A DNA stretch of 64,000 bases, taken from contig CAJVXN010000003.1 in the NCBI GenBank assembly GCA_913009335.1, positions 3,899 through 67,898 of the forward strand, in the 5' to 3' direction. A program made the position numbers and the translations under genes. The number at the start of each line of letters is the position of its first letter. The first letter of the stretch is position 1. Positions 984 to 55,553 of the stretch are shown here, piece after piece. The notes beneath the pieces were generated by a model, which ran no database searches, was not told where the DNA came from, and saw nothing but the letters and a program-made list of their open reading frames with translations. The DNA comes from an uncultured bacterium (GTDB lineage: Bacteria > Omnitrophota > Gorgyraeia > Ghiorseimicrobiales > Ghiorseimicrobiaceae).

Positions 984-2534
984 TTAACGGATTGTTCTGC
1001 AAACTCCCTGCAGATGAGAAGTCTTCTGCCAAAAATAATTCATTTCTCCAAAAGGCCCACCGCTCCTATTCGTTCCGCCATGAGTCGAAATATAATGCGA
1101 AAAACCCGCATGTCTTGCATTAATCCTTAATATGCCGCAATTATCCAATTCTTTTGCGAACTTTCGGGTAAATTTTCCGGATTTAACCCATAAAGAAACT
1201 CTTAAGCCGTAATTATGATCATTTACCATATCAACCATTTTATTAAAAATCTCTTCGTTACTACCGCTAGCTTTTATTAGTGGTAAAAGAGGAAAGAAAA
1301 TCTCTTCATTAATACATAACATTTTCTTCGCTTTCTCAACATCCTCAATTTGAATTAATGTAGGTTGAACATAAGATCCTTTATTGTCTAGTTCTCCAAG
1401 ATAATTTACTCTTTTCCCACCACAAATTAAACTAGCGCCTTTCGATAAAGCATCTTCAAGGAATAAAAAGTATTCTTTAATTTTCGATACAGGACTCAAT
1501 AATGTTTCCTTATCTGATGGTAGAGCTATTTTTAAGGCTTTCACTTTATTAGTAAATATTTCTTTAAAATCAGAAAATGCCTTCTCATGAATTAAACCAA
1601 TTTTAGGCATCATGCAAACCTGCGTAGAACCTAAAAACCCTTCAATCAATGAATCTGCGGCCTTTTCTAAATCACCATCCTCCCAAACCATTAAGATATC
1701 ATTTCCGGAAAGCTCAAGTATTGGCTTTTTATTCGCTTTATATATCCGGGCTCCTTCTTCTATGCCCTTCTTACTATCACCAAAAAGTATAATATCGTTT
1801 ACAAAATCGTGCTCAAGCCACTCATCCATTAGCTTCTTTGAATTTCCGATAACGATATTTAATAATCCCGAGGGTGTATTATATTTTTTCAATATTTTCG
1901 CGATTATTTCTTTCCAAAGAAAAAGAGTAGATACAGGAGTCTTTAAAGGAGGTTTGACAATTAAAGCATTACCGACTAAAAATACTAAAATAGCATTAAA
2001 AGAATTACTTGCTGCGGCACTACGAGGAGGGTTAATACAAACCACGCCATCAGGCCTTCTTGCAGAATATAAAATTTCGTTAGAGTCTTTACCAATTTCT
2101 TTTTGTATTAGAGTACAATAGTAATTTACTGTTTCAGGGCTACTACCAATTCGCATGCCCTCAAATTCCCATTCTGCTAATTTTCGTGAATGGGCTTCGA
2201 AAGTTAAAATATCCAAAAATTCTTCCTTGCGCTCAATAAGTGCTTTATTTATATCTACCAACATATTTCGCCGAATAGAAAGAGGAAACTTACGAAACTC
2301 TTTAAAAGCCCGTTGCGCTGATTTCATCGCAGTTAAATTGGTATCTTCTTTATTTATACAATATCGCGCATATATATATTGATCTACATTATCAGGAATT
2401 TTCCCTTTCCTTAATCCCCTCATTACTTCTTTCATCGAAGAAAAATCAGTAATCACCTTATCCGCATAAGGATAATAATCATAAATACCAGTATCTAAAT
2501 CCTTGCCATCTATTAACAACGTGAATTCTTTCAT
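984..2534 (-). CDS. Aldehyde dehydrogenase superfamily protein (ALDH / acyl-CoA reductase-like)
   Basis: 516 aa. Contains ILELSGNDILMV (ELGG-like catalytic Glu motif), FLGSTQVCMMP (GQxC-like catalytic Cys motif) and an NAD-binding region. Last gene of the signalling/lipid operon. Confidence 0.65.
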   Translation of the reverse strand: MKEFTLLIDGKDLDTGIYDYYPYADKVITDFSSMKEVMRGLRKGKIPDNVDQYIYARYCINKEDTNLTAMKSAQRAFKEFRKFPLSIRRNMLVDINKALIERKEEFLDILTFEAHSRKLAEWEFEGMRIGSSPETVNYYCTLIQKEIGKDSNEILYSARRPDGVVCINPPRSAAASNSFNAILVFLVGNALIVKPPLKTPVSTLFLWKEIIAKILKKYNTPSGLLNIVIGNSKKLMDEWLEHDFVNDIILFGDSKKGIEEGARIYKANKKPILELSGNDILMVWEDGDLEKAADSLIEGFLGSTQVCMMPKIGLIHEKAFSDFKEIFTNKVKALKIALPSDKETLLSPVSKIKEYFLFLEDALSKGASLICGGKRVNYLGELDNKGSYVQPTLIQIEDVEKAKKMLCINEEIFFPLLPLIKASGSNEEIFNKMVDMVNDHNYGLRVSLWVKSGKFTRKFAKELDNCGILRINARHAGFSHYISTHGGTNRSGGPFGEMNYFWQKTSHLQGVCRTIR

Positions 2535-2557
2535 GCTATTAACGCCTCCACAAATTA

Positions 2558-4459
2558 TTAAGCATTTATATTATAATCTGTCACAAGCTCATTTATAAGA
2601 TCTTTAACTGAAACTATTTTATCTATTCTGTCAGCGTTTGCGCCTGCCATTACAAAACCATCATCCAGATTTCCGCGATAGGCATTTACTAACGCATTGG
2701 CAATACAATAATTTGCCGCATATGGATCACATGTTCTTAAGCACCTATAAGGACAGGTAAATTTTATCTTTTCCCCTGATTCAATCCTTTCAACAAATTT
2801 ATTTCGTATTACTCTTGCCGGCATACCGACCGGACTAAGAACTACAATTGTGTCATCTTTTCCGCATTTTAAATAAGCTTCCTTGTATTCCTTAGATACA
2901 TCGCACTCATTGGTGCAAACAAAACGAGTAGCCATTTGTACACCACTTGCTCCTAATTTCAACATTTTAGCTATATCTTTACCGGTAAATATCCCACCTG
3001 CTGCTATTACAGGAATTTTCTTACCAGATTCTGATTCAAACTTTTTAACAACATTTAAAACCTCTAGCAATAAATCTTCAAGAGATGGTGCTTCCTCAGT
3101 TATAATTTCTCCGAATTTAAAACCAATATGCCCGCCCGCAAGAGGACCTTCTAAAACTAGCGCATCAGGCGCTCGATTATAACGCCTTAGCCAAGTTTTA
3201 CAAATCAATTCTGTTGCTCTACCCGACGAAACAATTGGAATAAATTTTGTTTTTGAATCTCTAGATAGAGAAGGTAAATGAAGCGGCAATCCTGCACCTG
3301 AGATAATAGCCCCTACCTCTTCTTCAATTGCGACTTTCGCTAAATCATCATAATTAGTAAGAGCGCACATTATATTTACACCAAACGGTTTTGAAGTAAG
3401 ATGCTTAGTCTCTTTTATCATTTCCCTAAAAGATAATTTAGACCTTTCTTCATATGTTAGATCCTGCGGTCCTTCTTCTCCTAATCCAACACTAGCAATC
3501 ACCCCAACCGCCCCCTCATTAGATACAGCAGCAGCCAATGACGCAGTTGAGACTCTCACGCCCATTCCTCCCTGAATTATTGGAGGATTTATAACAAGAT
3601 CACCTATAACTAAATCCGGTAATTTTTTCTTCGTCATACAGCAGCCCATCCTTCCCTTGTAAAACACATACATTCCCCAGGGATCAATTTCTGTATTAAT
3701 ATCAGAGTACCCGAGATCTACTAACCATTTTTCAATCAGTTTCGGATCCCTATAAAACAATTTCCATTCTTTCCCGCTTTTTGTTATGCCGACTTTCTCT
3801 ATTAATTTACGATTTGGGCTATCACGTTGAGTTATAAATAATAGAAGTCCGCCAGGTTCTAGATAATCTTTAATTGTTTTTAAAGAAGATACGACTGATT
3901 CATCATCTAAATATTCATACAAACCGGATGAGATAACTACATTAGGCGACCAACCTCTTTTTTCTGAAAGTCGCTTATGATGAGACCCGATACGCAAAAT
4001 ATTAGATTTTCTATACAGCATGGGTCGATTACCCGCCATCTTCCTCCCATGGTCGAGAGAATGTTTATCGATATCTAAGCATAAAACCTCTATGCGATCT
4101 TTCATATCATCAGTTATAAGCTCAACTAGATATCTTGCAGGACCGGAGGCAAGATCCACGATACGTGTTTTTTTATTTTTGGCTATATTTTTATTTATTT
4201 CATCTTTTAATATGCTAATTACTTTGTCTTTTCTATATCTAGTTGCTTTAGCTGCCGGTAAATTAAGAAGAATTCTGTCTATTATTCTACCTAATTTCGT
4301 ATATCCTTTTGCCTCATTAGAATATATATGATCGAAATTTATTCCTGAGTCTGCGTATCCAAACATACTCTTTCTGCCCAGACGACTTGAGAAAATAAGC
4401 GGCTTTACAATCCGCTTATAAAAAAAATCTTCTATTTTTCCTAAAATAGGTAAACTCAT
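2558..4459 (-). CDS. Fusion protein: class I SAM-dependent methyltransferase (N-terminal) + FMN-dependent nitronate monooxygenase/NMO-family oxidoreductase (C-terminal)
   Basis: N-terminal half carries VDLASGPARYLVELI (SAM-MT motif I). C-terminal half carries VINPPIIQGGMGVRVSTASLAAAVSNEGAVGVIA, typical of NMO/2-nitropropane dioxygenase-like TIM barrels, and the Cys cluster CPYRCLRTCDPYAANYC. Paralogous to the 363-aa NMO at 49645-50736. Confidence 0.65.
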   Translation of the reverse strand: MSLPILGKIEDFFYKRIVKPLIFSSRLGRKSMFGYADSGINFDHIYSNEAKGYTKLGRIIDRILLNLPAAKATRYRKDKVISILKDEINKNIAKNKKTRIVDLASGPARYLVELITDDMKDRIEVLCLDIDKHSLDHGRKMAGNRPMLYRKSNILRIGSHHKRLSEKRGWSPNVVISSGLYEYLDDESVVSSLKTIKDYLEPGGLLLFITQRDSPNRKLIEKVGITKSGKEWKLFYRDPKLIEKWLVDLGYSDINTEIDPWGMYVFYKGRMGCCMTKKKLPDLVIGDLVINPPIIQGGMGVRVSTASLAAAVSNEGAVGVIASVGLGEEGPQDLTYEERSKLSFREMIKETKHLTSKPFGVNIMCALTNYDDLAKVAIEEEVGAIISGAGLPLHLPSLSRDSKTKFIPIVSSGRATELICKTWLRRYNRAPDALVLEGPLAGGHIGFKFGEIITEEAPSLEDLLLEVLNVVKKFESESGKKIPVIAAGGIFTGKDIAKMLKLGASGVQMATRFVCTNECDVSKEYKEAYLKCGKDDTIVVLSPVGMPARVIRNKFVERIESGEKIKFTCPYRCLRTCDPYAANYCIANALVNAYRGNLDDGFVMAGANADRIDKIVSVKDLINELVTDYNINA

Positions 4460-5034
4460 TTCCCTATAGCCTTTTTTACTGCCTGCAACAACGCTTTAAT
4501 ATCAAACGGCTTCTCAATATAATCTGATGCTTTTAATCTTAAAGCCTCCCTATATATATCTTCCTGCGCATACGCTGAGATAAAAATCTCAGGAACCAAA
4601 GGTTTATCATTCTCTGCCAAATACGCTCTAAGCTTCTCAACAGTCTCTATCCCGTTCATTTTCGGCATCTTAAGGTCCGATATAATTAAATCAAAGGTTT
4701 CTTTGGCTATTGTTTTCAAAGCCTCTTCCCCGCCGGATGCTATAGACACCTTGTATCCTTCTTTAACTAATAGTCTTTTTAAAGTTTTAAGAATGAGCCT
4801 ATCATCATCGATAACTAAAATATGCGTGGACGATACTTTATCCTCTTTATCTTCGTTAAGCCTATTCCCGGCAACAAACCCATCATGAGAATCTCCATAT
4901 TCTTCAAAATAATTATTCCGCCTCTGATGAAAAATATCTCCCCAGCTATCTTCGCGAATAATATGTTTTTTTTCTTCTTCTATCCATATATCTACAAAAT
5001 AATTACTGCATTTATCTGATAAACCATAACCCAT
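4456..5034 (-). CDS. Response regulator receiver-domain protein with ~65-aa N-terminal extension
   Basis: HILVIDDDRLILKTLKRLL...DLIISDLKMPKMNGIE matches the CheY-like receiver fold (DD pair, phospho-acceptor Asp, conserved Lys). No output domain. Confidence 0.7.
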   Translation of the reverse strand: MGYGLSDKCSNYFVDIWIEEEKKHIIREDSWGDIFHQRRNNYFEEYGDSHDGFVAGNRLNEDKEDKVSSTHILVIDDDRLILKTLKRLLVKEGYKVSIASGGEEALKTIAKETFDLIISDLKMPKMNGIETVEKLRAYLAENDKPLVPEIFISAYAQEDIYREALRLKASDYIEKPFDIKALLQAVKKAIGK

Positions 5035-5051
5035 TATCTACTCCTTTTTAT

Positions 5052-5426
5052 TTATTTACCTAAATTTTTCCGCACAAGATTTAAAAACTCTGTAATATCA
5101 AAAGGTTTATATATATAATCAGCTACATTTAATTCCTCCGCCTGCTTTAAACTTTCATCGCTGGCGTATCCGGTTATAAGGATTTCCGGAGTAGGTTTCC
5201 TTACAATCTCGCGAAGCTTCTTAATTATCTCTATACCATCCATCTCCGGCATTCGTATATCGGCTATAATAAGATCAAAACCAGACTCTTTAATCTTAAC
5301 CTTTTCTATAGCATCAATGCCGCTTTCTGCAATAGTAACATTATAACCCTGCTTCTTAAGTAATCGTCTTATACTCTCAGTAACCAGCTGCTCATCATCT
5401 ATTACTAAAATATGCTTTGGTATCAT
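5052..5426 (-). CDS. Stand-alone CheY-like response regulator (receiver only)
   Basis: 124 aa; ILVIDDEQLVTESIRRLL...DLIIADIRMPEMDGIEI...KPF receiver signature. Confidence 0.8.
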   Translation of the reverse strand: MIPKHILVIDDEQLVTESIRRLLKKQGYNVTIAESGIDAIEKVKIKESGFDLIIADIRMPEMDGIEIIKKLREIVRKPTPEILITGYASDESLKQAEELNVADYIYKPFDITEFLNLVRKNLGK

Positions 5427-5449
5427 AAAAACTTACCCTATATTGAAAT

Positions 5450-7612
5450 TTAATTCTTGCTTACTACCGGTACCTCTACTGTAGGCAGTTTTACTGTAAA
5501 CACAGACCCGCTATCAGCTACACAGCGGGCAGAGATTGTACCCTTATGCTTCTCAACAATTGCCTGACATATTGAAAGCCCCAATCCAAGGCCCTTACCG
5601 ACATCTTTGGTAGTAAAAAACGGGTCAAATATCTTTAATACTATTTCATCGGGAATACCCGCTCCCTCATCTTCAACCTCAAGCTTTATCCAGTCTTTAT
5701 TTTTTGAAAGAGTGATACGAACATTACCACCCTTTTTTATTTTCTTAATAGCATCTTTTGCATTCAATATCAGGTTTGTTATAACCTGTTCAAATTCATT
5801 TTGAGTACCTTTTACAGTGTAAGTGCCATTTTTAATCTCAGGAATTATCTTTATATCTTCCTGCTCCAGCTGGTAACTCAAAAATGTAATTACGCCTTGG
5901 AGCGATTTTTTTAAATCAACATCGGCAATACTCGAAGTCTCCATAGGCTTTCTGGAATATACCATTAATTTCTGTACAATCTTGCGGCATCGTTTGGTCG
6001 CTTCTTCTATAAGCTCAAGAGACTCTTTATCCGGATTATCGTTGTCTTCACAATCCATAAGCATCATCTGCACATTGGTTAATACCGCGGTCAAAGGATT
6101 ATTTATCTCATGAGCTACCCCGCCGGCAAGTGTTCCAACTGTGGCAAGTTTCTCAGCCTGAACAAGCTGTTTCTGTACATCCATCAATTCTTTTGTCCTC
6201 TGCTGTACTTCCCTTTCTATATTCCCATACAATAAGGCATTCTCAATGGCCAAAGCGGAATCCCCCGCCAAAACAGAAAAATTATTCAAATCTTCGGAGC
6301 CATACATCCTCCCCGAAAGTTTATCTCCCAATATAATAACATCTAATAACTTACCATCTAAAAAACCCGGCACGGCTATCGCGGCATTTAAATTAAACAT
6401 TTCTTCTCTTAAATTCTTAAAAATAGGGTTGAGGCTAGCTTCGGACTTACTCTTTATCTCCTCATAGACCAAAGACTCTTTTTTACTTTCAAACCACGTC
6501 ATTAATGTGCTTTTCTTGTCTATAGAAGCTGGCTGGTCTTTTTTTAAATTAATCCCTGTCTTAAAAATAAACTGTTCAGTCTTTGCGTCCCATAAATATA
6601 TTGCTGAATGAGTTATGCGCACTGAATCAGTAATAGTATGGGTGATAAAATCTAGTAACTCCGGCAGATTGCGGATACGCGTCATATCCACTGAAGCCGC
6701 TTTTAATATTTCCTGGTAACGCCGTTGTTCCCTAAATAAAATAGCTAGCGCCCGTTTTTCAAGATAAACATAAACAAACGGCCCGCATATACCTAAACCA
6801 ACCATTAATAGCATCGGCCCAATCCACCAGGCAGCCCCTAAAAACTCAACCAACTGGCTTCTCCCTAAGGTCGCGAGCAAAAACGGCAATCCCAAAACCA
6901 GCGCATAAACCGCCACAAATACACCTGTTCTGGTAATTGTCACTGTAATATCCATAAGGCGATATTTAATAATAGCGTAGGCAATCAGGCTGACATACAA
7001 AATAAGTAATAAATCGTGGGGGAAAGGCTCTTTATTAAAATACGCCGCGCAAAAATGAAGCAATCCGCTAATAACTCCCAACACAAAAGAAAAAAAGATA
7101 ATTTTTAACTGGTTACGATAATATCCGCTTGCATTCTTAAATTCAGAAAAAATACTCCATAAAATAAAACTAAAACTGACAGTAAATCCAACCACAAATA
7201 ACAGATATAAAGGGCCCGGAACAACAGAAAAATGAGGAGCAAAACGATTTACTCCCCGTATAAAAAACGGACTAAAACTAAACAGAAGAAATACGGCAGA
7301 AAAACAATACCCTAAAATTAATATCTTTTTATCCTTAGACGATAATTTTTGCTTAACAGCAGCCGCAAAACGTATCCAGACAACAGGCGTAAAGATAGCA
7401 GGAATATAGACTAGACGAGTAACAAATAACATTAAGGCTGGATCATCAATTCTACTCGCCAGGAAAGGAAAAGAGGTCCATAAGCCGGTAACAAAGATGG
7501 CAATACCAAAAGATCGGCACTTTATATCCCTGTACCGTCTTATAAAGATAAACGCTCCCAACGTTAAACAGAAAATAAAGGCAAATAATGAAGAAATACT
7601 ATAAATATTCAA
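5450..7612 (-). CDS. Sensor histidine kinase with N-terminal 7TM-type membrane sensor, central GAF-like region, HisKA and HATPase_c
   Basis: Multi-TM N-terminus; H-box [11 protein letters not shown]; G-boxes [22 protein letters not shown] and [22 protein letters not shown]. Confidence 0.8.
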
Positions 7613-7623
7613 TTTTCTCTCTC

Positions 7624-9195
7624 TTATCTATTAACTGCACACATTTTTATCTTCTCAAATGTTGTCTCATCTATACGCTTGTTACCCCAATAAAAATCAG
7701 AAATACCAAAACCGTGTTTTTTACCTAAAGCGGTTATCTCTTCTATTTTTTCAGGCGTAATATTTCCTCTTCCGAAACTAAAGCTTTCGTAGCGCTTCTC
7801 CAACGCTAGAATAATCGCTTCACAGAAACACCCATAACTTACCCCTGCGTCAGGCAAACCTATATCAATCGGTATTTCAATCTTCGTAGGCGTTTTTGCA
7901 AGGCCCCCTGAAAAAACAAGGATATCATCCCTTGTTGTAGGAGCATAGGATATATTTTTCGGATACCCTACATCACAAATTATCGAACCCGGCTTAAACC
8001 AATCAATCTTAAGTATAGAAGCAGTAGCGCTTGCCGCGGCAATTACTATATCCGCATCGTTTATCGCTGACTGGTTATCCGTAGTAGCTACAATACGTGC
8101 TTTACGTTTCTTAGCCAGCTCAGACCTTAAACTACGCAGATTAGACTTTGTCCGTCCGGTAACAGCAAGTTCTCTCACCTTGCCTGCCAGCACTCGCGCG
8201 CAGCCGCTGCCGATATCACCTGTCCCGCCGACTATGGCCACTTTTAAATCTTTTAAATCTTTACCTAAAAGCTTAACTGCTCGCTCTACTGCCTCTATTA
8301 TCAAGGCAACCGTATAGGTATTGCCTGTTGTAATAGCGATATCTACCTCTTCATTTATCTGTTGGCCAAGTCTCTCTCCCACAATAGAGGTAAACCCTCC
8401 TAATGTTACGATACCAACACCATGTTTCTCTGCTATTTTACATGCTCTTACTACCTTTGAATAAACTCCGTGAAGATCACTAGACAACATCTCAGGAACA
8501 AATGTACAAACAATAAAACATCCGGAAGTTGTAACACCTATCTTTGATTTAAATTCCTTCATCTCGTGTATCTTAAAAGAAGGAGTCATGGTAAAAAGCT
8601 TAGTTAAGAATTCTTCCGAAGGCATCTTAAAATCCGGATTCATAGTTTTAAGACAGCGCGCTAAATGATTAAAGTTATAGAAATGCCCCAATACACCAAA
8701 ACCTGCCAGCTTTGTAAGATTACCCTGTTTAAAACTAGCATACTTAATCGAAATCAAACGACGCTCCCATGCACCCAACATTGCCGCAAAGTTTTTAGCC
8801 AGCATATTCCTGATATATTCATCCGCGAATTCTTTAATCGCAGGTATACCCACTCTTAAATGAACGCTTACAACAACTTCCGTACCTTCGGGATGATCGT
8901 TAAATTTCCATTCGCCGTAAAATTCCTGCAGGTCGCCTTCTATTGCTTTAAACGAAATTACATTTCCTCTAAGCTCTAAAGTATCTTCCTCCACCCAGCT
9001 TATCGGTACTCCATCGACCTGTACGCGCCACTTTGTCTTCATCGTATTGTGCTTACGACTCAACACCTTAGCCTCTTTTACGGTAGGCATATAACTAGGA
9101 AATTCCCAAACACGGGTTGCGAGACGAATTATACTAGATTTCTGCGCGTGTATAACTTTTGATATATTTATATGTATTAAATCATCCTTCGGCAT
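7624..9195 (-). CDS. Fusion: SRPBCC (polyketide-cyclase/START-like) domain + acyl-ACP reductase (AAR)-like NAD(P)-binding oxidoreductase
   Basis: The C-terminal 350 aa share blocks with cyanobacterial acyl-ACP reductase as I recall it: LGGFTSIVG, TTGNTYTVA, IVGGTGDIGSG, DVGYPKN. The N-terminal ~140 aa resemble SRPBCC ligand-binding domains. Confidence 0.55.
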   Translation of the reverse strand: MPKDDLIHINISKVIHAQKSSIIRLATRVWEFPSYMPTVKEAKVLSRKHNTMKTKWRVQVDGVPISWVEEDTLELRGNVISFKAIEGDLQEFYGEWKFNDHPEGTEVVVSVHLRVGIPAIKEFADEYIRNMLAKNFAAMLGAWERRLISIKYASFKQGNLTKLAGFGVLGHFYNFNHLARCLKTMNPDFKMPSEEFLTKLFTMTPSFKIHEMKEFKSKIGVTTSGCFIVCTFVPEMLSSDLHGVYSKVVRACKIAEKHGVGIVTLGGFTSIVGERLGQQINEEVDIAITTGNTYTVALIIEAVERAVKLLGKDLKDLKVAIVGGTGDIGSGCARVLAGKVRELAVTGRTKSNLRSLRSELAKKRKARIVATTDNQSAINDADIVIAAASATASILKIDWFKPGSIICDVGYPKNISYAPTTRDDILVFSGGLAKTPTKIEIPIDIGLPDAGVSYGCFCEAIILALEKRYESFSFGRGNITPEKIEEITALGKKHGFGISDFYWGNKRIDETTFEKIKMCAVNR

Positions 9196-9778
9196 CGATT
9201 AACTCCTTTACGGCTTTTCTGATTTTAAAGATTCCTTCCTGTAAACTTATATCATCAATTAAATCACCAAATTCCTTAAGCAAATACAGTGGTTTACCTA
9301 TTTTTAACGTGATAGGTACGAATTTAGGTAATTTAGCTCTCCTAGGAAGAGCCTCATAAGTACCTAAAATCGCGCAGGGAACTATTGGCCTGCCTGTCTT
9401 AACCGCAAGTAAAGCTACCCCTCTCCTGAATTCAGAAAGGGTTCCGTCCTTGCTTAATCTCCCTTCGGGAAATAAACCTACGTTCTTATTCTGCATCAAT
9501 AAAGAAATGGCCTTATCCGATGAACGACCGCTCGGAAGAGCCTCAACACTTTTAAAAAACCACCTAAGCCACGCTATCTTATAAAAACCTCGAAAGGCAA
9601 TACAAGAGATCTTCTTTGGCATTGTTGCCATAATAACTAGGCCGTCCAGATAGCTTGCATGATTCGCAACTACTATAAAATTGCTTTTCTTGGGCAGATT
9701 TTCTTTCCCTTCTACCTTAAGCCGAAAGAACACCTTAAGTATAATTAAAAATATTGCTTTAAATATCCAATATAACAT
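9182..9778 (-). CDS. 1-acyl-sn-glycerol-3-phosphate (lysophospholipid) acyltransferase, PlsC family
   Basis: HxxxxD motif (VANHASYLDG) and FPEGRLS (FPEGTRS-like) motif. The start codon abuts the stop of the upstream GIY-YIG gene. Confidence 0.7.
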   Translation of the reverse strand: MLYWIFKAIFLIILKVFFRLKVEGKENLPKKSNFIVVANHASYLDGLVIMATMPKKISCIAFRGFYKIAWLRWFFKSVEALPSGRSSDKAISLLMQNKNVGLFPEGRLSKDGTLSEFRRGVALLAVKTGRPIVPCAILGTYEALPRRAKLPKFVPITLKIGKPLYLLKEFGDLIDDISLQEGIFKIRKAVKELIDAEG

Positions 9779-10039
9779 TTACCCCGTTAGAGATAGGAAA
9801 CGCTTTAATCTATTTTTAAGATAGCGTTTACCCATGCCTGTTTTTAAGTATCTTTCTCTATCAAGCGCATCATCTTTATTCTTACTTGCCTCGTAATATA
9901 TTAGTTCAAAAGGGCCTCGGTTCTTAGTAGACACTACCTTACTTTGCTCATGTTCCTTAAAGCGTTTCCGTAAGTTACCCGTTGTTCCTGTATACCATTT
10001 ATTATCTGCTAAGCTTCTAATTATATAAACATAATACAT
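9779..10039 (-). CDS. GIY-YIG nuclease family protein (YhbQ/UPF0213-like, 86 aa)
   Basis: YVYIIRS...WYTGTTGNLRKRFKEHE matches the GIY-(10-11)-YIG catalytic module. The ORF sits exactly between 15-bp perfect inverted repeats. Confidence 0.6.
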   Translation of the reverse strand: MYYVYIIRSLADNKWYTGTTGNLRKRFKEHEQSKVVSTKNRGPFELIYYEASKNKDDALDRERYLKTGMGKRYLKNRLKRFLSLTG

Positions 10040-10061
10040 AAGTTGTTATCTCTAACGGGGT
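9781..10061. mobile_element. Small inverted-repeat element carrying the GIY-YIG ORF (putative autonomous copy of a MITE-like family)
   Basis: Left arm ACCCCGTTAGAGATA at 9781-9795 is perfectly complementary to TATCTCTAACGGGGT at 10047-10061 (17 bp with one mismatch). The same termini bound ~120-bp copies at 10721-10850 and 26867-26988. Confidence 0.4.
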
Positions 10062-10342
10062 CCAGCCTTAAAGTTTGCTTTTATATTATTTTTTTGGCGG
10101 CTATAGTTCTCCTTCTCCTCTATCCAAGCATCAATGGAAGACTTTTTAAAGCGCCAGTGTTTCCCTACCTTCATCGCCGGAATTTGTCCCGCGCGCGACC
10201 AGAAATAAAGTGTCTGCTTTGGAATTTTTAAATAACTACTTACTTCTTCGATTGTAAGAATTTTATCTTCTGACATAATTATTTCCCTCTCATCACTCCA
10301 AGACTGAAGACGCAGCACTCGCAACATCGCCAGAAACATCAC
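10052..10342 (-). CDS. Helix-turn-helix DNA-binding protein (excisionase/MerR-like HTH_17 family); probable true start at internal MSEDK near 10276
   Basis: LTIEEVSSYLKIPKQTLYFWSRAGQIPAMKVGKHWRF is a typical Xis/AlpA-type HTH. The C-terminal codons (AGPR*) run into the right inverted repeat of the GIY-YIG element. Confidence 0.45.
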   Translation of the reverse strand: MMFLAMLRVLRLQSWSDEREIIMSEDKILTIEEVSSYLKIPKQTLYFWSRAGQIPAMKVGKHWRFKKSSIDAWIEEKENYSRQKNNIKANFKAGPR

Positions 10343-10874
10343 TATAGCGTATCGTGCCGTTTGTATCTACGAAAAAGGATTTTGCGCCGCTTAAACCCCA
10401 AGCCTCAGGATAAGCAGTAGCAGTAAAACTAATAACATTACCGGCCAAAATAAGTTGATACCCATTCTTGCTCACCGTATCCGCGTTAAAAGTATCATCA
10501 AGATAAGGAGGATCAGATGCAGGAATAGTAAATGAAGCTAAGCTACTGGGATATCCAGGGTTAGCTGCCCTGTAATTTTGCGCTGCTTCTGAGACTAGGC
10601 GTAAATTAGAGATTGCTGCTGATTCTTTAGCATTTACCCGCGCACGCAAAAAATCAGGTATAGCAAGAGAAAGTAATAGCATAACAATTGCCACTACTAT
10701 CATAATTTCCATCAGGGTAAACCCCGTTAGAGATAATCCGCCATGTTTCTTCGGCGGATGTAAATTCACTTTAATATTTGGAGAAAAACGCATCTTACCT
10801 TCAATAGCTTGTGGTAAACCAAACGTATGTTTTGGTATCTCTAACGGGGTAAAACCTTTTGACTCTCGATACAT
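10293..10874 (-). CDS. Type IV pilin-like protein (prepilin N-terminal cleavage/methylation domain) with unusually long leader
   Basis: G^FTLMEIMIVVAIVMLLLSLAIP class-III signal. The C-terminus (FFVDTNGTIRYSD...SVLE) is paralogous to the pilin at 13901-14335. The leader contains a translated MITE copy. Confidence 0.6.
   Translation of the reverse strand: MYRESKGFTPLEIPKHTFGLPQAIEGKMRFSPNIKVNLHPPKKHGGLSLTGFTLMEIMIVVAIVMLLLSLAIPDFLRARVNAKESAAISNLRLVSEAAQNYRAANPGYPSSLASFTIPASDPPYLDDTFNADTVSKNGYQLILAGNVISFTATAYPEAWGLSGAKSFFVDTNGTIRYSDVSGDVASAASSVLE
10721..10850. repeat. MITE-like copy B of the ACCCCGTTAGAGATA inverted-repeat family (inside the pilin leader coding region)
   Basis: IRs at 10721-10735 and 10836-10850; internal hairpin ATCCGCC...GGCGGAT adjacent to the left IR. 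Confidence 0.5.
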
Positions 10875-11082
10875 AAATACACCTACTTTATAATAATACT
10901 ATATTCCAAACTAACTAATAACAACTAACACTTTCTAACCTTAACTACCATAAAATATTATTATAAGGAATTTACCTTATATCTGTCAAGGAAATTTTAC
11001 CTCAAAAAAATAACCTCAAATCAACAATAAAGTTAACTTGAGGCTATTAAATATAATATCTAAAGTATATCAGTTATATCCT

Positions 11083-11718
11083 TTATTCTAATTGCCACAT
11101 ATTATCATTAACCCACGTGGAGTCAGCATCTGTAAATACGCTATCAGCCGGCAAAGACTGATCAGTCTCATAAATTACATTGGCTTCCTGCACATAAAAC
11201 CCCTTTTTCCCAGTAGGTAGCTGAAAACCCAATGATTTATACCGTATCGGCCGCGCGATAGCTTTAAAAGTACTCGCAGTCCCTTCAAGAATCTTAAATC
11301 GGTATCCGTCTTTAAAACAAAAACCCTTTCCAGCTGCTCCATATAGCGCAGCAGAATCACAACCCAGTTGAGGACCAAGATACGCAGGCTGGGCAATAGC
11401 AGCGCAATACAGCGCGGGAGCCTCAGCCGAGGCTCCTGTCGGAGGAGGGCCCAGAGGTTTTAAGTCATCCGGAAACGTTGAATTAACCCCCCGGTAAGCC
11501 TGAGCGGCAGATGAAATCATCCGTATAGAAACTAACGCGGAAGACTCATTCGTATTTATCCTCGTACGATATATCTGCGGAAGAGCAATCGCTGTTAATA
11601 AGGTAACAATACTAACAACTATCATAATCTCTATCAAAGTAAATCCTGGCTTATGATTTCGGCATAACTTAGTAATTTTAATATACATCTCTATCTCCCC
11701 CCCTTTACATAAAAACAT
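11083..11718 (-). CDS. Type IV pilin / pseudopilin (prepilin-type N-terminal cleavage/methylation domain)
   Basis: KPG^FTLIEIMIVVSIVTLLTAIALP signal; true start probably MYIKITK (15-aa leader). Confidence 0.6.
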   Translation of the reverse strand: MFLCKGGEIEMYIKITKLCRNHKPGFTLIEIMIVVSIVTLLTAIALPQIYRTRINTNESSALVSIRMISSAAQAYRGVNSTFPDDLKPLGPPPTGASAEAPALYCAAIAQPAYLGPQLGCDSAALYGAAGKGFCFKDGYRFKILEGTASTFKAIARPIRYKSLGFQLPTGKKGFYVQEANVIYETDQSLPADSVFTDADSTWVNDNMWQLE

Positions 11719-11950: not shown

Positions 11951-13792
11951 TTACGGCGCAGAAGAAGCCTTAATCATCCAAATGACTCTGCCAAGGCTTT
12001 CCTCTGCCTTTTGATAATCCGGATCTATTTCTAATGCTTTTTCAAAATACCCCTTGGCCTCTCTTAATTTACCCTGGTTGGCTAAGACTACACCAATATT
12101 AAAAAAGGCCTTGGCAAATCCAGGATCAATAGAAGCTGCTTTCTCATATTGGGCAAGCGCATCATCAAACCTGTTATTCTTTTCGTATATACTACCTAAA
12201 TTATTTATTGCCCGAACAAGCTCGGGATTGATGCTAATTGCCTGCTCGTACATTTTAATCGCGTCTTCCTCCATGCCTTTTCTTTCATAAAGGCGGGCCA
12301 AATTATAATAATGGACCGCTGATTTTGGCTTTGATTTTATAATATCCTTATATCTCTTAATATAATTATCTTCTACAATGCTCTTATTCTTTGCTATCGA
12401 TTCTATTTTGGGATTTATTTCCAGGGCCCGCTCGTACATTTTAATCGCGTCTTCCTCCATGCCTAAATGGGCATAGATATTTGCCAGATTATTACGGGTT
12501 ATATAGCTTGCGGGAGAAAACTTATCTGTCCAGCGGTAAAAACTGATAGAATTACGCCAAACATAATTTTGCGAAAAAGTAAGCAGCCCGAAAAATACAA
12601 CTATTGATATAAATAAGGCCTGGGCTAAATATTTTCGCCTAAGGTATAATTTATTAAGCCCATAGGCAATAATCATAAATATGCCGATTGAGGGAAGATA
12701 TAAATAGTGATCGGCCAATATCGCGATAAAGAAAAAACTCGACTGCGGAAACAGCAAAATAAAAAACCAGGTTATATTAAAAATAAAAAACTTCTTGTTT
12801 CTAAACCTACATCTACTAAAAAACACTATTAGAATAATTGCTATAGATATAAACGTTAAAACATGCGCGTCAAATATTCTTACTGCCGGCATCATATAAC
12901 GTTCCATATGAAGATTAACCGGCATAATCAAAAGCCAGAGATAAATAATAACGCCTTTAAAAAAACTAAATATCCTAATAATGCTATTGGGAGAATAAAG
13001 GCTGGCCTTTGCGAAAATGGGTTGGGCAGAAAAATTAAGAATAGTCAAACGTAACACTATATAGAATGCGGCAATAAAAATAAAAGGTAGGAGCCTTTTC
13101 ACTCCGGATACTCTATCCTTCTTTAAGAAAACTTCAAAAATAATTAGAACAGGCACAAAAATCAGGCTCATTTCTTTGGAAAACAAGGAGAATACGAATA
13201 AAAGAATAGAAGATAAGTATAAAATCCTTGAAAACTTAAAAAGATCAAAATGGCGGATATAAAAAAGCAGTGCTGAAAGAATAAAAAATGCGGAAAGTAA
13301 ATCAGCGCGTCCGGATATATAACTTACGCTTTCGCAATGCGCAGGATGAACCACAAACAAAACAGCGGTAAATAAAGCAATAAAATTTAGTCGCTTAAGA
13401 GTTTTATTGTTTTTAGACTCAGTATTGCGCTCTTTTAATAAAAGAGCGCATAAATAAACCGTTAAAATATAGACTAATATCGCATTTAAAATATGTAAAA
13501 GAAAACTATGTAAATGATATCCGAAAGGATTAAACCCAAATATACGGTAATCCAGCATATAGCTGAATACCTGAATAGGCCGATAGTAATTAGTATGCGT
13601 GCCGTTAAGTAATTCCTGGGTTACTGCCCCATGCCAGTTTGCAACATCTTTAATTACCTCATTTGACGTAATCAGAAAATCATCATCCCAGACAAAATCA
13701 TTATTAAAAGAATTGGCATAAGATAGTAAACCGCAAAAAACTACTATTATTATCGCGGGTATAAATGATTTTTTATTCATATTAAGACCCAT
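11951..13792 (-). CDS. Multi-pass membrane protein with C-terminal TPR repeats (TMTC/PMT-like putative glycosyltransferase family)
   Basis: N-terminal FxWDD motif (SFNNDFVWDDDFLITSNEVIKD) followed by ~11 TM helices and C-terminal TPR units (AxxYxxAL...P repeats). Paralog at 16878-18695. Start more likely MNKKS (13780). Confidence 0.6.
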   Translation of the reverse strand: MGLNMNKKSFIPAIIIVVFCGLLSYANSFNNDFVWDDDFLITSNEVIKDVANWHGAVTQELLNGTHTNYYRPIQVFSYMLDYRIFGFNPFGYHLHSFLLHILNAILVYILTVYLCALLLKERNTESKNNKTLKRLNFIALFTAVLFVVHPAHCESVSYISGRADLLSAFFILSALLFYIRHFDLFKFSRILYLSSILLFVFSLFSKEMSLIFVPVLIIFEVFLKKDRVSGVKRLLPFIFIAAFYIVLRLTILNFSAQPIFAKASLYSPNSIIRIFSFFKGVIIYLWLLIMPVNLHMERYMMPAVRIFDAHVLTFISIAIILIVFFSRCRFRNKKFFIFNITWFFILLFPQSSFFFIAILADHYLYLPSIGIFMIIAYGLNKLYLRRKYLAQALFISIVVFFGLLTFSQNYVWRNSISFYRWTDKFSPASYITRNNLANIYAHLGMEEDAIKMYERALEINPKIESIAKNKSIVEDNYIKRYKDIIKSKPKSAVHYYNLARLYERKGMEEDAIKMYEQAISINPELVRAINNLGSIYEKNNRFDDALAQYEKAASIDPGFAKAFFNIGVVLANQGKLREAKGYFEKALEIDPDYQKAEESLGRVIWMIKASSAP

Positions 13793-13900: not shown

Positions 13901-14335
13901 TTATTCCAATACTGAATCACCAGCAACAGGAGTCTGATCCTCAGTATCATTGTATTTTATGACCCCGCTAGTATCAACAAAGAAATTCCTTGCTCCAGTT
14001 TGTGCCCAATCAGTAGGCATAGCAGTAGCAGTAAAAGAATTAGTTCCTCCTGCAAGAACAAAAGTATATCCCTGCTTTGTTCCATTCCCTAAAACATCAT
14101 CGATGTATGGAGGAGTTTCATTAGGAGAAGCCAAAGAAGCCAACAGTACAGGATAACTCGTGTTAGCCCCTCTATAACTCTGCGCTGCCGTTGAAACAGT
14201 ATGTAGACCGGCTACCGCAGCTGATTGGTTAGCATTTACTCTCGCACGCAATAGGTTAGGTATCGCTATAGCGGCTAATAAAACGATGATCGCAACTACG
14301 ATCATGATTTCAACTAACGTAAAACCTTTTTTCAT
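13901..14335 (-). CDS. Type IV major pilin (PilA-like)
   Basis: MKKG^FTLVEIMIVVAIIVLLAAIAIP canonical class-III signal; 144 aa; strong RBS GGAGG; consensus-like promoter upstream. Confidence 0.75.
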   Translation of the reverse strand: MKKGFTLVEIMIVVAIIVLLAAIAIPNLLRARVNANQSAAVAGLHTVSTAAQSYRGANTSYPVLLASLASPNETPPYIDDVLGNGTKQGYTFVLAGGTNSFTATAMPTDWAQTGARNFFVDTSGVIKYNDTEDQTPVAGDSVLE

Positions 14336-53369: not shown

Positions 53370-55553
53370 ATGTCTCAATTAATATTTAAAAATTACGGCA
53401 AAAGCTATCAGCTTAGAATTCAAGACGCGCAGGATTTAGAGAACATTCAAGCTCTCGATGAAACGCACTGGGCAGCTACCAGCGTTCCCATTGACAGTCT
53501 CAACTGTGACGCTACTTTTGTTTCTTACGTAGATACTGATAAAAACGGACGTATCAGAACGAATGAAATTAAAGATGCGCAGGCCTGGTTATTTCGATTC
53601 CTCAGCAATCGCAGCCGCCTGTCTGATGGTAGCGATACCTTAAACTTAAACGATATCGATACCACTCATCCTGAAGGTAAAAAATTACGAGACGTAGCAA
53701 AGCTTATCTTAGCTAATCTCAATTCCCCGGATGCCGAAAAAATCAGCTTAGCCCAGATACGCGATGTACAAAGTATTATGGCGAACGCGGCGAATAATGG
53801 CGATGGTATTATTCCCCCGGAGGCTAGCTCTGAGGCTGATTTAGCCGGATTCATCACTTCAGTTATTGAGACTGTTGGTTCTGTGCCCGATGCCAGCGGT
53901 AAAGCAGGAATTAGTCAGGAGCAACTTGAAATATTCTTTAATGAAACTAAAAACTATCTTAGCTGGAAGGCGAAAGGCGAAATCCCTGAAGGAGATAAAT
54001 CCACAGAGGTTATGCCTTGGGGTACTGAGACACCGCAAGCTTATGATTTAATAGCCAGCCTGGAGGAGAAAATCGAACAATACTTTGCGCAATGCGCAAT
54101 GGCTAAATTCGATGAAAGAACGCTGGCTCAGATGCAGCTTCGTCCAAAAGAGCTTGAAGAAATCGATTTTAAAGATAAGTCAGCAATGGAAGCTCGAATC
54201 AAAGATGCCCCATTGGCTGTGCCTAATCCAAAAGGCACATTGGATCTGGATATAGCAATTAATCCCTTATATGCTGAGCGCATATCTGATCTTAAGGAGC
54301 AAGTTTTAAAACGCGCCCTGGGAGGATCAGTTAAACACCTTACCCAAAAACAGTGGGATGAGGTAAAAAATATCTTTGCCCTATACCGAAGCTGGTTAAA
54401 AAACAAACAAGGCGCAAAAGTAGAAAAACTAGACAGAGACAAACTAAATACTTATCTTAACGGCTCCTATAGGAAACAAGTAAGTGAAATTATCGCTAAA
54501 GATCAGGCCGTGGCTAATGATTTAAACCAGATGCAGAATTTGGAAAAGCTAATCCTTTACCAAAAATGGCTGCTGGAATTAGTAAACAATTTTGTGAGTT
54601 TTGCAAATCTTTACAATCCTCAGGTTCGCTCCCTTTTTGAAATGGGCACATTAATAATTGATGGCAGGCAAATTACTTTTACAATGAAGGTCCGGGATAA
54701 AGCAGCGCACAAAAATATAGCAGAAAAAAGTTGTATGTATCTACTCTATGCGGAGATTACCGGCCGCCAGGATAACGATATTAACCCTTCGACTTCGCTC
54801 AGGATTAATGGTGAGCAAGGTCGAACCATTAAATTTGATATTGTGGCTGCGGTAACTTCCGGTAGCGCGGGCGGATTGCGCATTGGAAAACGCGGAATCT
54901 TTTTTAGCGTAGACGGCAAAGAATGGGATGCAAAAATAGTAGATATCGTAGAAAACCCTATTGGCATATGGGAATCGATAAAAGCGCCTTTCGGACAATT
55001 TACAGGCTTCATAAGAAAACAAGTGGATAAATTCACCAAATCCGGCCAGGGCAAATTAGAGAAAAATCTTGCCGCACCTTCCGCATCAGGCACGACTCGC
55101 GATCTCTTACTAGGCGGAGGCATAGCTATTGCGGCTCTTGGCTCATCCTTTGCTTATATCACTAAGGCCCTCTCCCAGGTAAAACCAACTCATATTCTAA
55201 TTGCATTAGCGGGGATAACAACCGCTATTTTATTGCCGGGCATAATTATGGGATTTATCAAGATACGAAAAAGAGATATGAGCGTTCTCCTGGAGGCATC
55301 AGGCTGGGCAATAAATATGCATATGCGTCTAAATTCTACTTTAGGACGGCTTTTTACTCACGTACCGCATCTGCCTAAAGGTGCGCGCAAAGAACGCAAA
55401 GATACAGTAGCGAAGTTTGTAAAAGATTTTGGTTACGCTCCCCTGCGCTCGATGAAATTACCTATAATAACTTTAATTATCTTACTCATTGCGCTTGGTT
55501 TAACACTGATTCGAGTATTCCCTATGTTAAAATTCTTGCCTGGCTGTTTTTGA
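53370..55553 (+). CDS. Hypothetical 727-aa protein with N-terminal EF-hand-like Ca-binding loop and C-terminal TM helices
   Basis: Good RBS (TAAGGAG). DTDKNGRIRTNE matches the 12-residue EF-hand loop consensus D-x-D-x-N-G-x-I-x-x-x-E. Two hydrophobic segments near the C-terminus. No recognisable catalytic family. Confidence 0.5.
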   Translation: MSQLIFKNYGKSYQLRIQDAQDLENIQALDETHWAATSVPIDSLNCDATFVSYVDTDKNGRIRTNEIKDAQAWLFRFLSNRSRLSDGSDTLNLNDIDTTHPEGKKLRDVAKLILANLNSPDAEKISLAQIRDVQSIMANAANNGDGIIPPEASSEADLAGFITSVIETVGSVPDASGKAGISQEQLEIFFNETKNYLSWKAKGEIPEGDKSTEVMPWGTETPQAYDLIASLEEKIEQYFAQCAMAKFDERTLAQMQLRPKELEEIDFKDKSAMEARIKDAPLAVPNPKGTLDLDIAINPLYAERISDLKEQVLKRALGGSVKHLTQKQWDEVKNIFALYRSWLKNKQGAKVEKLDRDKLNTYLNGSYRKQVSEIIAKDQAVANDLNQMQNLEKLILYQKWLLELVNNFVSFANLYNPQVRSLFEMGTLIIDGRQITFTMKVRDKAAHKNIAEKSCMYLLYAEITGRQDNDINPSTSLRINGEQGRTIKFDIVAAVTSGSAGGLRIGKRGIFFSVDGKEWDAKIVDIVENPIGIWESIKAPFGQFTGFIRKQVDKFTKSGQGKLEKNLAAPSASGTTRDLLLGGGIAIAALGSSFAYITKALSQVKPTHILIALAGITTAILLPGIIMGFIKIRKRDMSVLLEASGWAINMHMRLNSTLGRLFTHVPHLPKGARKERKDTVAKFVKDFGYAPLRSMKLPIITLIILLIALGLTLIRVFPMLKFLPGCF

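Follow-up and report, generated by a model that had tools for sequence, protein, structure and literature searches.

In Bacillus subtilis, the DesK-DesR pair links membrane sensing, by a multi-transmembrane (TM) kinase without an extracytoplasmic domain, to lipid correction via acyl-chain unsaturation, and, to our knowledge, the mechanisms described so far by which bacteria control the fatty-acid composition of their membranes are almost all transcriptional (FadR, FabR, FapR, FabT, DesT, DesK/R). A pairing of enzymes related to the one considered here occurs in Myxococcus, where the multidomain ether-lipid biosynthesis enzyme ElbD contains both a thioester reductase and an acyltransferase of the PlsC/AGPAT type. 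Here, we analyze a window of 64,000 nucleotides from an uncultured bacterium of the phylum Omnitrophota (positions 3,899 to 67,898 of the forward strand of contig CAJVXN010000003.1, assembly GCA_913009335.1; all coordinates below are those of the window) and, within it, a gene cluster that encodes an SRPBCC domain fused to a relative of cyanobacterial acyl-acyl carrier protein (ACP) reductase (AAR), along with an acyltransferase, two 7TM histidine kinases, two receiver-only response regulators, a methyltransferase fusion, and an aldehyde dehydrogenase (ALDH). An initial interpretation made from the letters alone, hereafter the sequence-only reading, had proposed an operon that couples two-component signaling to fatty-aldehyde and lipid remodeling. 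We give something close to an even chance to the view that the cluster is a signal-gated lipid module acting on acyl-ACP, the local form of a system conserved across the phylum.

The SRPBCC-AAR fusion gene (7624-9195, minus strand, as are all the cluster genes below) encodes an N-terminal SRPBCC domain (8746-9195; PF03364, 56 bits, and PF10604) followed by an AAR-like NADPH-dependent thioester (acyl-ACP) reductase domain (7624-8718). The Pfam match to the latter region is of the Shikimate_DH type and covers the Rossmann core only, whereas the NCBIfam model for long-chain acyl-ACP reductase, TIGR04058, aligns over its full length with 178.3 bits; nearly equal is the score of the N-terminal thioester-reductase domain of PigE (NF053554, 172 bits), a homologous domain for which the reductive conversion of a thioester to an aldehyde has been demonstrated experimentally (PMC8341465). 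In alignments with profiles and Protein Data Bank entries, residues 166-496 match positions 2-334 of 339-341, with E=1.3e-36 for the solved AAR structure 6jzq and 28-30% identity to AAR. The tetrapeptide 'YGCF' aligns with the catalytic 'FACF' of AAR, making Cys456 the equivalent of AAR Cys294, and both Cys456 and the NADPH motif GGTGDIGS (G323-G324-x-G326-D327-x-G329; GxTGDIG in AAR) are invariant among 39 orthologues. In an AlphaFold model of the whole protein (predicted local distance difference test score, pLDDT, 87; predicted template modeling score, pTM, 0.79), the AAR part superposes on solved AAR by Foldseek with a TM-score of 0.80-0.83. The SRPBCC part, a domain of the class with a START/Bet v1-like hydrophobic-ligand pocket, reaches 0.89 on TTHA0849 (2d4r) and superposes also on polyketide ARO/CYC proteins and PYL receptors. 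Full-length alignment, residues, and fold thus all fit AAR and not a shikimate or amino-acid dehydrogenase, the former being an identity that the sequence-only reading had itself set against its AAR-like assignment; on sequence and model, the window protein can be classified as a predicted AAR-superfamily thioester reductase. Neither the cluster genes nor the related loci examined yielded a ferritin-like or aldehyde-deformylating oxygenase (ADO) domain, and an alkane pathway is ruled out by the lack of an ADO gene.

The arrangement around this protein recurs throughout Candidatus Omnitrophota. The loci compared, by tblastn, were pooled from the encoding contigs, 14 genome loci, and 80 metagenome loci, and removal of near-identical copies left 87 distinct loci with 29-70% identity to the query. 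SRPBCC adjoins AAR in all 87, as one open reading frame (ORF) in 85 and as separate genes in two; with 800 homologues matched at E<=1e-10, the fusion is the standard form within Omnitrophota rather than the rarity it had been taken for. A same-strand 7TM kinase is found among the first two recognized genes after AAR in 52 of the 53 loci that have at least 4.5 kb of downstream sequence. The kinase is the very next gene in 35 loci, and the genes found between the two are a fatty acyl reductase (FAR)-like short-chain dehydrogenase/reductase (SDR; 9 loci), a glucose-methanol-choline (GMC) oxidoreductase (5), an acyltransferase (1), or a thiamine diphosphate (ThDP) enzyme (1). At least two kinases are encoded in 26 of the 33 long loci, with 2-5 paralogous kinases per locus, and the same long loci contain a methyltransferase in 14 cases and a FabF-like synthase in 10; other accessory genes encode 4HBT thioesterases, ACP, acyl-ACP desaturase, GDSL esterase, and FadL-type channels. 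Within the main clade, SRPBCC-AAR and the acyltransferase are ~60-68% identical to their counterparts and the kinases 30-60%. The order recurs at 45-70% protein identity in ~90 independent loci from metagenomes and genomes, far more often than chance would produce, and the conservation of gene order in relatives, which had been suggested as a check, is borne out. The invariant core consists of SRPBCC/AAR, a 7TM kinase, and one or more receiver-only regulators; the ALDH, the FabX-like gene described below, and the acyltransferase lie outside it.

A few loci depart from this pattern in their own ways. In the lone exception to the kinase rule, L077 (8301-10248), a stand-alone PilZ gene that overlaps the AAR stop codon takes the place of the kinase, and the genes that follow encode a beta-barrel protein of the outer membrane, a radical SAM enzyme, and a secretin. 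In a deep-branching locus, L026 (6117-10901), SRPBCC and AAR are separate genes accompanied by a FadL/Toluene_X outer-membrane channel, and an acetolactate-synthase-like ThDP enzyme is encoded between two 7TM kinases, on a contig that also bears an 8849-aa ORF; by analogy with PigE/PigD, which this AAR and ThDP pairing recalls, the product there could be an acyloin (alpha-hydroxyketone). In about 20 loci, a second AAR paralogue of ~330 aa, absent from our window, lies upstream of the acyltransferase gene, between it and the HTH_17 gene (e.g., L009 8419-9411, L011 9-974, and L019 638-1648). This paralogue lacks both the catalytic cysteine ('IPASIAE' in place of 'YGCFCEA') and the GxTGDIG motif and, to judge by these changes, is probably a pseudoenzyme partner.

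The first sensor kinase of the window (5450-7612) comprises HisKA_7TM, a GAF-like linker, HisKA, and HATPase_c, with the H-box 'AHEINNPL'; its matches to PF16927, PF00512, and PF02518, like those of the receivers to PF00072, all exceed the cut-offs of these families. Of the 7TM-GAF architecture that had been proposed for it, the 7TM kinase part stands, and the GAF part is sub-threshold (GAF_3, E=8.8e-4; 20 bits, with the cut-off at 27), with the whole profile covered; the orthologous kinases of relatives do give GAF matches. Two described kinase families were rejected: PrsK, the PEP-CTERM/exosortase kinase (TIGR02916; 113 bits against a cut-off of 300), aligns over its full length and shares the 7TM kinase architecture only, and the NCBIfam 'T2SS_HK' family (146 against 450 bits) is likewise below threshold. 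The second kinase runs off the window, which holds its N-terminal 316 aa (1-950; PF16927, 75 bits); full-length orthologues are found at the corresponding position of L003 and L017, with 74-76% identity, a 7TM-GAF-HATPase_c organization, and a length of ~740 aa. Receiver 1 (5052-5426, 124 aa; PF00072, 96 bits) has the acidic pocket, the phospho-acceptor aspartate ('ADIRMP'), and the lysine ('YKPF'), and most loci have a receiver gene after the kinase. Receiver 2 (4456-5034, 192 aa; PF00072, 101 bits over residues 72-187) has orthologues in L003, L017, and L019 (60-68% identity). Residues 1-70 of receiver 2 form an N-terminal extension without a Pfam or NCBIfam match, and its 198-aa orthologue in L003 appears to have such an extension as well. 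Phosphotransfer from these kinases to these receivers is putative, with adjacency as its sole basis.

In relatives, the connection between signaling and lipid enzymes is written into single polypeptides. A receiver is fused to FabF in a single ORF in L001 (13772-15379), L027 (16622-18328), and L085; in L001, this protein scores 571 bits with the FabF equivalog model, above the cut-off of 494, and the genes after it encode an AcpP-like ACP and a 452-aa protein without a family match. Receiver-ALDH fusions occur in L024 and L105, and the ALDH part of the former is orthologous, at 45% identity, to the ALDH of the window. PilZ is fused to the methyltransferase in five loci, and both PilZ-SRPBCC-AAR and HTH_17-PilZ-SRPBCC-AAR are found as single ORFs (the latter being P0322 of L023); some loci also encode receiver-HD-GYP and receiver-nucleotide cyclase (guanylate-cyclase-type) proteins. 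Because receiver and PilZ domains are fused to them, the enzymes look like direct signaling outputs, and the proposed wiring of lipid enzymes to kinases is strengthened by the fusions involving FabF, ALDH, the methyltransferase, and SRPBCC-AAR itself.

The methyltransferase fusion of the window (2558-4459) had been annotated in the sequence-only reading as joining a methyltransferase to a nitronate monooxygenase (NMO); the fusion stands, and the NMO label does not. The C-terminal half (2558-3634) has the NMO/FabK fold (PF03060, 222 bits), and its best match of known structure is FabX of Helicobacter pylori (7e1q/9lt5, E=2.6e-75), with ~45% identity at full length over 338 aligned positions, slightly under the >50% at which FabX homologues are called in PMC8626469; FabK structures score 137 bits against the 257 of FabX. 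The catalytic His182 of FabX is retained ('EGPLAGGHIGFK' aligns with 'EGPLSGGHQGFK'), all four ligands of its [4Fe-4S] cluster (Cys300, Cys304, Cys308, and Cys320) align with cysteines, and, of the other residues in the published list (PMC8626469), the ACP-contacting Arg164 is kept and Thr130 is replaced by leucine. FabX carries a [4Fe-4S] C-terminal subdomain where FabK has its NAD(P)H site, and it catalyzes dehydrogenation and isomerization of decanoyl-ACP for unsaturated fatty acids (PMC8626469). A nitronate monooxygenase or FabK identity is accordingly rejected in favor of a FabX-like one, which fits better.

The N-terminal half (3644-4459; PF12147, Methyltransf_20, 113 bits) is a class I S-adenosylmethionine (SAM) enzyme (model pLDDT 91). 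Its nearest structures are an uncharacterized Bordetella protein (3ocj, TM-score 0.71) and small-molecule and acyl-carrier O- and C-methyltransferases; profile-to-structure searches and Foldseek yielded no specific function and placed it among small-molecule class I methyltransferases only. In relatives, the methyltransferase is either a stand-alone protein of ~270 aa or fused to PilZ, and, in L019, the methyltransferase and the FabX-like protein are encoded by abutting separate genes. All the remaining NMO homologues among the top-ranked matches listed (119 of 5677) are stand-alone proteins of ~360 aa. The window, GCA_011051015.1 (Candidatus Omnitrophota, which encodes proteins identical to those of the window), and a Logan assembly all have the same junction, which rules out an assembly or frameshift artifact. 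The fusion of methyltransferase and FabX-like domains is, thus, real and, among the NMO homologues listed, is seen in this genome only, so that, of the two architectures thought to be unusual, this is the only one that is.

The divergent ALDH-superfamily enzyme (984-2534, 516 aa; PF00171, 203.8 bits) has lactaldehyde dehydrogenase 3pqa as its best solved relative (E=1e-38). The catalytic Cys307 ('QVC307') and the general base Glu274 ('E274LSG') align with those of 3pqa and are invariant in orthologues. Residues 169-177 read 'PPRSAAASN' in place of PWNFP, with the oxyanion-hole asparagine replaced by serine or arginine; this change is common to two ALDH orthologues, 74-76% identical, and the receiver-fused relative in L024 reads 'PPGNAP' at this position.

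The PlsC-family acyltransferase (9182-9778, 198 aa; PF01553, 91.9 bits against a cut-off of 23) has the HX4D motif ('NHASYLD'), 'FPEGR', and an N-terminal hydrophobic helix. Its best NCBIfam matches are the acyltransferase domains of Aas-type acyl-ACP--phospholipid/lysophospholipid enzymes, all far under their cut-offs, and its score with TIGR00530, the model of 1-acyl-sn-glycerol-3-phosphate specificity (76.5 bits), is under the cut-off of 102.95. Its gene immediately precedes that of SRPBCC-AAR in 49 of 73 loci, with 58-67% identity of the protein, and is missing from deeper-branching loci that retain AAR and the kinase. Domain profiles, then, uphold the initial calls of a PlsC-like acyltransferase, two receiver-only regulators, an ALDH, and a second 7TM kinase.

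These components can be assembled into a signal-gated lipid module as follows. The AAR domain would load Cys456 with the acyl chain of acyl-ACP and, by NADPH reduction, release a fatty aldehyde; the fused SRPBCC pocket would keep or pass on the hydrophobic product, in place of the cyanobacterial ADO; and the acyltransferase, translationally coupled to the reductase, might compete or cooperate on the same acyl-ACP pool. The 7TM-GAF kinases would respond to a cue from the membrane or from lipids by phosphorylating the single-domain receivers, which, without a DNA-binding output, might act on the neighboring enzymes by protein-protein contact. There is a precedent for this in the receiver-only regulator PhcQ, which works by binding its target protein (PMC13320629). 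The candidate targets would be the AAR and acyltransferase, the methyltransferase-FabX-like protein (a double bond in the chain and methylation), and the ALDH (aldehyde removal); elsewhere, FabF, SDR, GMC oxidoreductase, and thioesterases may also shape or remove the acyl product. The HTH_17 protein would add transcriptional control and, in relatives, cyclic di-GMP (c-di-GMP) a second input. In sum, envelope signals would switch the flow and the structure of acyl chains (formation of aldehydes or alcohols, unsaturation, methylation, and elongation) at the post-translational level. The accessory genes, to judge by their predicted families, all concern the chemistry of acyl thioesters, aldehydes, and alcohols or the structure of the chain; the predicted core chemistry would be an aldehyde product and lipid remodeling.

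Several observations weigh against this view. The TIGR04058 score is far from the equivalog cut-off of 449.7 bits, and the AAR domain is best regarded, by sequence, as a superfamily relative of the cyanobacterial enzyme, not its orthologue. Receivers and FabF are fused in only 3 of their 13 adjacencies, and the receivers of the window are free-standing, so that their targets are not given by fusion here. ALDH and FabX-like genes are present in 3 and 2 of the 33 long loci, respectively, and are not essential to the system. A scan for promoters and terminators gave counts no higher than in shuffled controls. ALDH-superfamily enzymes can run as acyl-ACP reductases (TabE), so that the direction assumed for the ALDH is putative, as are the substrate and product of the module. 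Finally, the receiver-HD-GYP and receiver-nucleotide cyclase proteins, PilZ, and the FadL channels fit a cell-signaling circuit better than pure lipid homeostasis.

Such a circuit is the main rival. SRPBCC-AAR, the methyltransferase, and the tailoring enzymes would make a diffusible or membrane-borne signal derived from an aldehyde, with the 7TM kinases as its receptors, ALDH as the enzyme that degrades it, and receiver-only proteins and c-di-GMP as the outputs. We consider this autoinducer circuit possible, although on the unlikely side, and it does not exclude a lipid module. The near-constant placement of a candidate synthase beside a multi-TM kinase, in 52 of 53 loci, is characteristic of the Phc, Cqs/Lqs, and Rpf systems, and phcBSRQ of Ralstonia likewise consists of a methyltransferase, a kinase, and two receivers (PMC8578825). 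The tailoring enzymes differ by lineage (FAR-SDR, GMC oxidoreductase, ThDP carboligase-type, thioesterases, and methyltransferase), several loci have FadL/Toluene_X outer-membrane channels for hydrophobic molecules within the cluster or close to it, paralogous kinases multiply to as many as five per locus, and the outputs include the lifestyle type (receiver-HD-GYP, receiver-guanylate-cyclase-type, and PilZ). An autoinducer circuit is harder to reconcile, however, with the bulk fatty-acid enzymes, namely, receiver-fused or adjacent FabF with AcpP-like protein, the FabX-like protein, and acyl-ACP desaturase, or with the identity of ~65% for SRPBCC-AAR and the acyltransferase against 30-45% for the kinases, which is unusual for co-evolving pairs of signal and receptor; export of the product from the cell is, moreover, hypothetical. 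A bolder combination, which we regard as speculative and unlikely, would have a long-chain fatty aldehyde serve Omnitrophota as a messenger in the membrane or as an autoinducer: SRPBCC-AAR would make it from acyl-ACP, a phosphorylation-controlled ALDH would destroy it, and dedicated 7TM kinases would read it. The same phosphorelay would also switch core fatty-acid enzymes (FabF and the FabX-like/methyltransferase protein) directly via receiver domains, which would amount to post-translational control of type II fatty-acid synthesis (FAS II) by a two-component system.

Two further explanations are less likely than either the signal-gated lipid module or the autoinducer circuit. SRPBCC-AAR might be mainly a trigger enzyme, and less a carrier of flux, that reports acyl-ACP/NADPH status, through the acyl-cysteine or a ligand of SRPBCC, to the kinase and to HTH_17. 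Its constant pairing with a signaling protein, kinase or PilZ, is compatible with such a role, as are the HTH_17 and PilZ fusion in P0322, which amounts to a one-component-regulator architecture with SRPBCC-AAR as the sensor, and the retention of the dead AAR paralogue in ~20 loci, which suggests non-catalytic roles of the fold. Nevertheless, the strict invariance of the catalytic cysteine and the NADPH motif, along with the FAR-SDR, GMC oxidoreductase, and ALDH genes that come directly after, which imply that a real product is handed on, makes this proposal highly doubtful. Most doubtful of all is a structural-lipid pathway, in which the acyltransferase and AAR (with FAR-SDR or GMC oxidoreductase) would make ether lipids, fatty alcohols, or wax-type lipids, and the two-component genes would regulate transcription or be merely syntenic: a reductase paired with a PlsC-type enzyme does recall myxobacterial ElbD and eukaryotic FAR1 with GNPAT, both proteins are highly conserved, and the surroundings are of a housekeeping nature, but DNA-binding domains are absent from the regulators, the enzymes themselves bear fused receiver and PilZ domains, deeper-branching loci dispense with the acyltransferase while keeping AAR and the kinase, and neither alkyl-dihydroxyacetone phosphate synthase nor a PlsA/Ger-type enzyme was seen in any locus.

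The genes of the window are laid out as would suit a single unit. Between 9778 and 1 there are, as had been noted, seven complete genes and a partial eighth on one strand, the minus strand; counted from 10276 to 1, the closely spaced series comprises nine ORFs and a partial tenth. From the acyltransferase to the second kinase, in the order of transcription, the intergenic gaps are -14, +11, +23, +17, -4, +23, and +33 nt, the first being the overlap of the acyltransferase stop with the SRPBCC-AAR start and the last applying if the ATG at 950 is taken as the start; of the range of -14 to +25 nt originally given, the lower bound is correct and the upper is, with that start, exceeded. Upstream of the interval originally marked lies a gene for a small HTH_17 protein (10052-10276; PF12728, 67.5 bits) of the MerR/excisionase-like DNA-binding class, whose gene call of 74 aa was taken from an independent assembly and which is probably the first gene of the unit. 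An HTH_17 gene is found upstream in 32 of 57 loci and within the cluster in L017 and L018.

Between HTH_17 and the acyltransferase, with zero gap to the start of the latter, the window has a gene for an 86-aa GIY-YIG protein (9779-10039; domain profile match), which is absent at this position from every other locus compared and looks like a small selfish insertion within the operon. In relatives, toxin-antitoxin-like pairs of nucleotidyltransferase and HEPN proteins are inserted elsewhere in the cluster (L003 14197-15178; L013 and L019). Farther upstream, the sole perfect sigma-70 consensus (TTGACA-18-TATAAT; 10960-10989, minus strand) lies just downstream of a 17-bp terminator-like hairpin (11009-11048, minus strand) and upstream of a pilin-like ORF, and, from its sequence, might possibly be the start of the transcription unit. 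This 193-aa ORF (10293-10874), which precedes HTH_17, is one of three genes for type IV pilin- or pseudopilin-like proteins with N-terminal methylation motifs directly upstream of the cluster (the others at 11083-11718 and 13901-14335, all minus strand), where there is also a gene for a 613-aa multi-TM and TPR protein (11951-13792, minus strand). The remainder of the window is of the housekeeping kind (IleRS, Lgt, pseudouridine synthase, and FtsA). Far from the cluster, a large serine recombinase (Resolvase, Recombinase, and Zn ribbon; 55567-56979, minus strand) adjoins a 727-aa ORF without a Pfam match (53370-55553, plus strand), and the two may be a mobile-element remnant.

The first hint that two-component systems and c-di-GMP act directly on lipid enzymes would come from the fusions of receivers with a bona fide FabF and with ALDH and from those of PilZ with the reductase and with the methyltransferase. 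The system is near-universal and highly conserved in Omnitrophota, a widespread, uncultured phylum of ultra-small cells whose envelope biology and cell-cell interactions are obscure, and it extends the AAR family well past cyanobacterial alkane synthesis. SRPBCC-AAR, receiver-FabF, and receiver-ALDH might also serve as compact parts for the engineering of fatty aldehydes and alcohols.

Comparison with known systems brings out both what is shared and what is not. With cyanobacterial AAR, from the AAR/ADO alkane pathway (6JZQ/6JZU), the window protein shares the three-part fold, the equivalent of Cys294, and GxTGDIG, and the same conversion of acyl-ACP to fatty aldehyde is expected; in contrast to the cyanobacterial case, there is no ADO, an SRPBCC domain precedes the reductase, a 7TM kinase stands beside it, and the host belongs to a non-photosynthetic uncultured phylum. 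The N-terminal domain of PigE, from the 2-methyl-3-n-amylpyrrole (MAP) branch of prodigiosin synthesis (4PPM), is about as close in sequence as AAR (E=1.5e-30), but in PigE it is joined to a class III aminotransferase and serves a pigment pathway, whereas the window has no transaminase and shows SRPBCC and a signaling link instead. With H. pylori FabX (7E1Q), the FMN-dependent TIM barrel, His182, the four [4Fe-4S] cysteines, and Arg164 are held in common; unlike FabX, the window domain is fused to a SAM methyltransferase, lies in a two-component cluster, and belongs to an anaerobe.

At the level of regulatory logic, the likeness to DesK-DesR consists in a multi-TM kinase beside genes that alter acyl-chain unsaturation. 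However, DesR is a DNA-binding protein that controls a desaturase gene, whereas the receivers of Omnitrophota have no output domain or are fused to enzymes (FabF and ALDH); DesK is of the 5TM HisKA_3 type, unrelated to HisKA_7TM; and the Des system has no counterpart of AAR. The reductase of ElbD is of the FAR/nonribosomal peptide synthetase reductase (NAD_binding_4) type, part of one polypeptide with a ligase and ACP, and has no link to a kinase. Operon logic is also where the resemblance lies to phcBSRQ of Ralstonia, in which PhcB is a SAM methyltransferase, a signal synthase that modifies a fatty acid, accompanied by a sensor kinase and receivers, with PhcQ acting by protein binding (PMC8578825, PMC13320629), and which can be grouped with CqsA/CqsS of Vibrio and LqsA/LqsS/LqsR of Legionella as systems of a synthase and a sensor kinase. 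Unlike Phc, Cqs, and Lqs, the loci of Omnitrophota have a candidate synthase of the AAR type, at least two 7TM kinases, and bulk FAS II enzymes. In the literature searched, we found no account of SRPBCC-AAR proteins, of the function of PF12147, of the cluster, or of receiver-fused FabF and ALDH, and PF16927 appeared only in two archaeal two-component censuses. Taken together, the parts are of known families and the logic has precedents in DesK/R, Phc, and Cqs/Lqs; what appears undescribed is the combination of an AAR-type reductase obligatorily paired with 7TM kinases and FAS II enzymes as direct two-component outputs.

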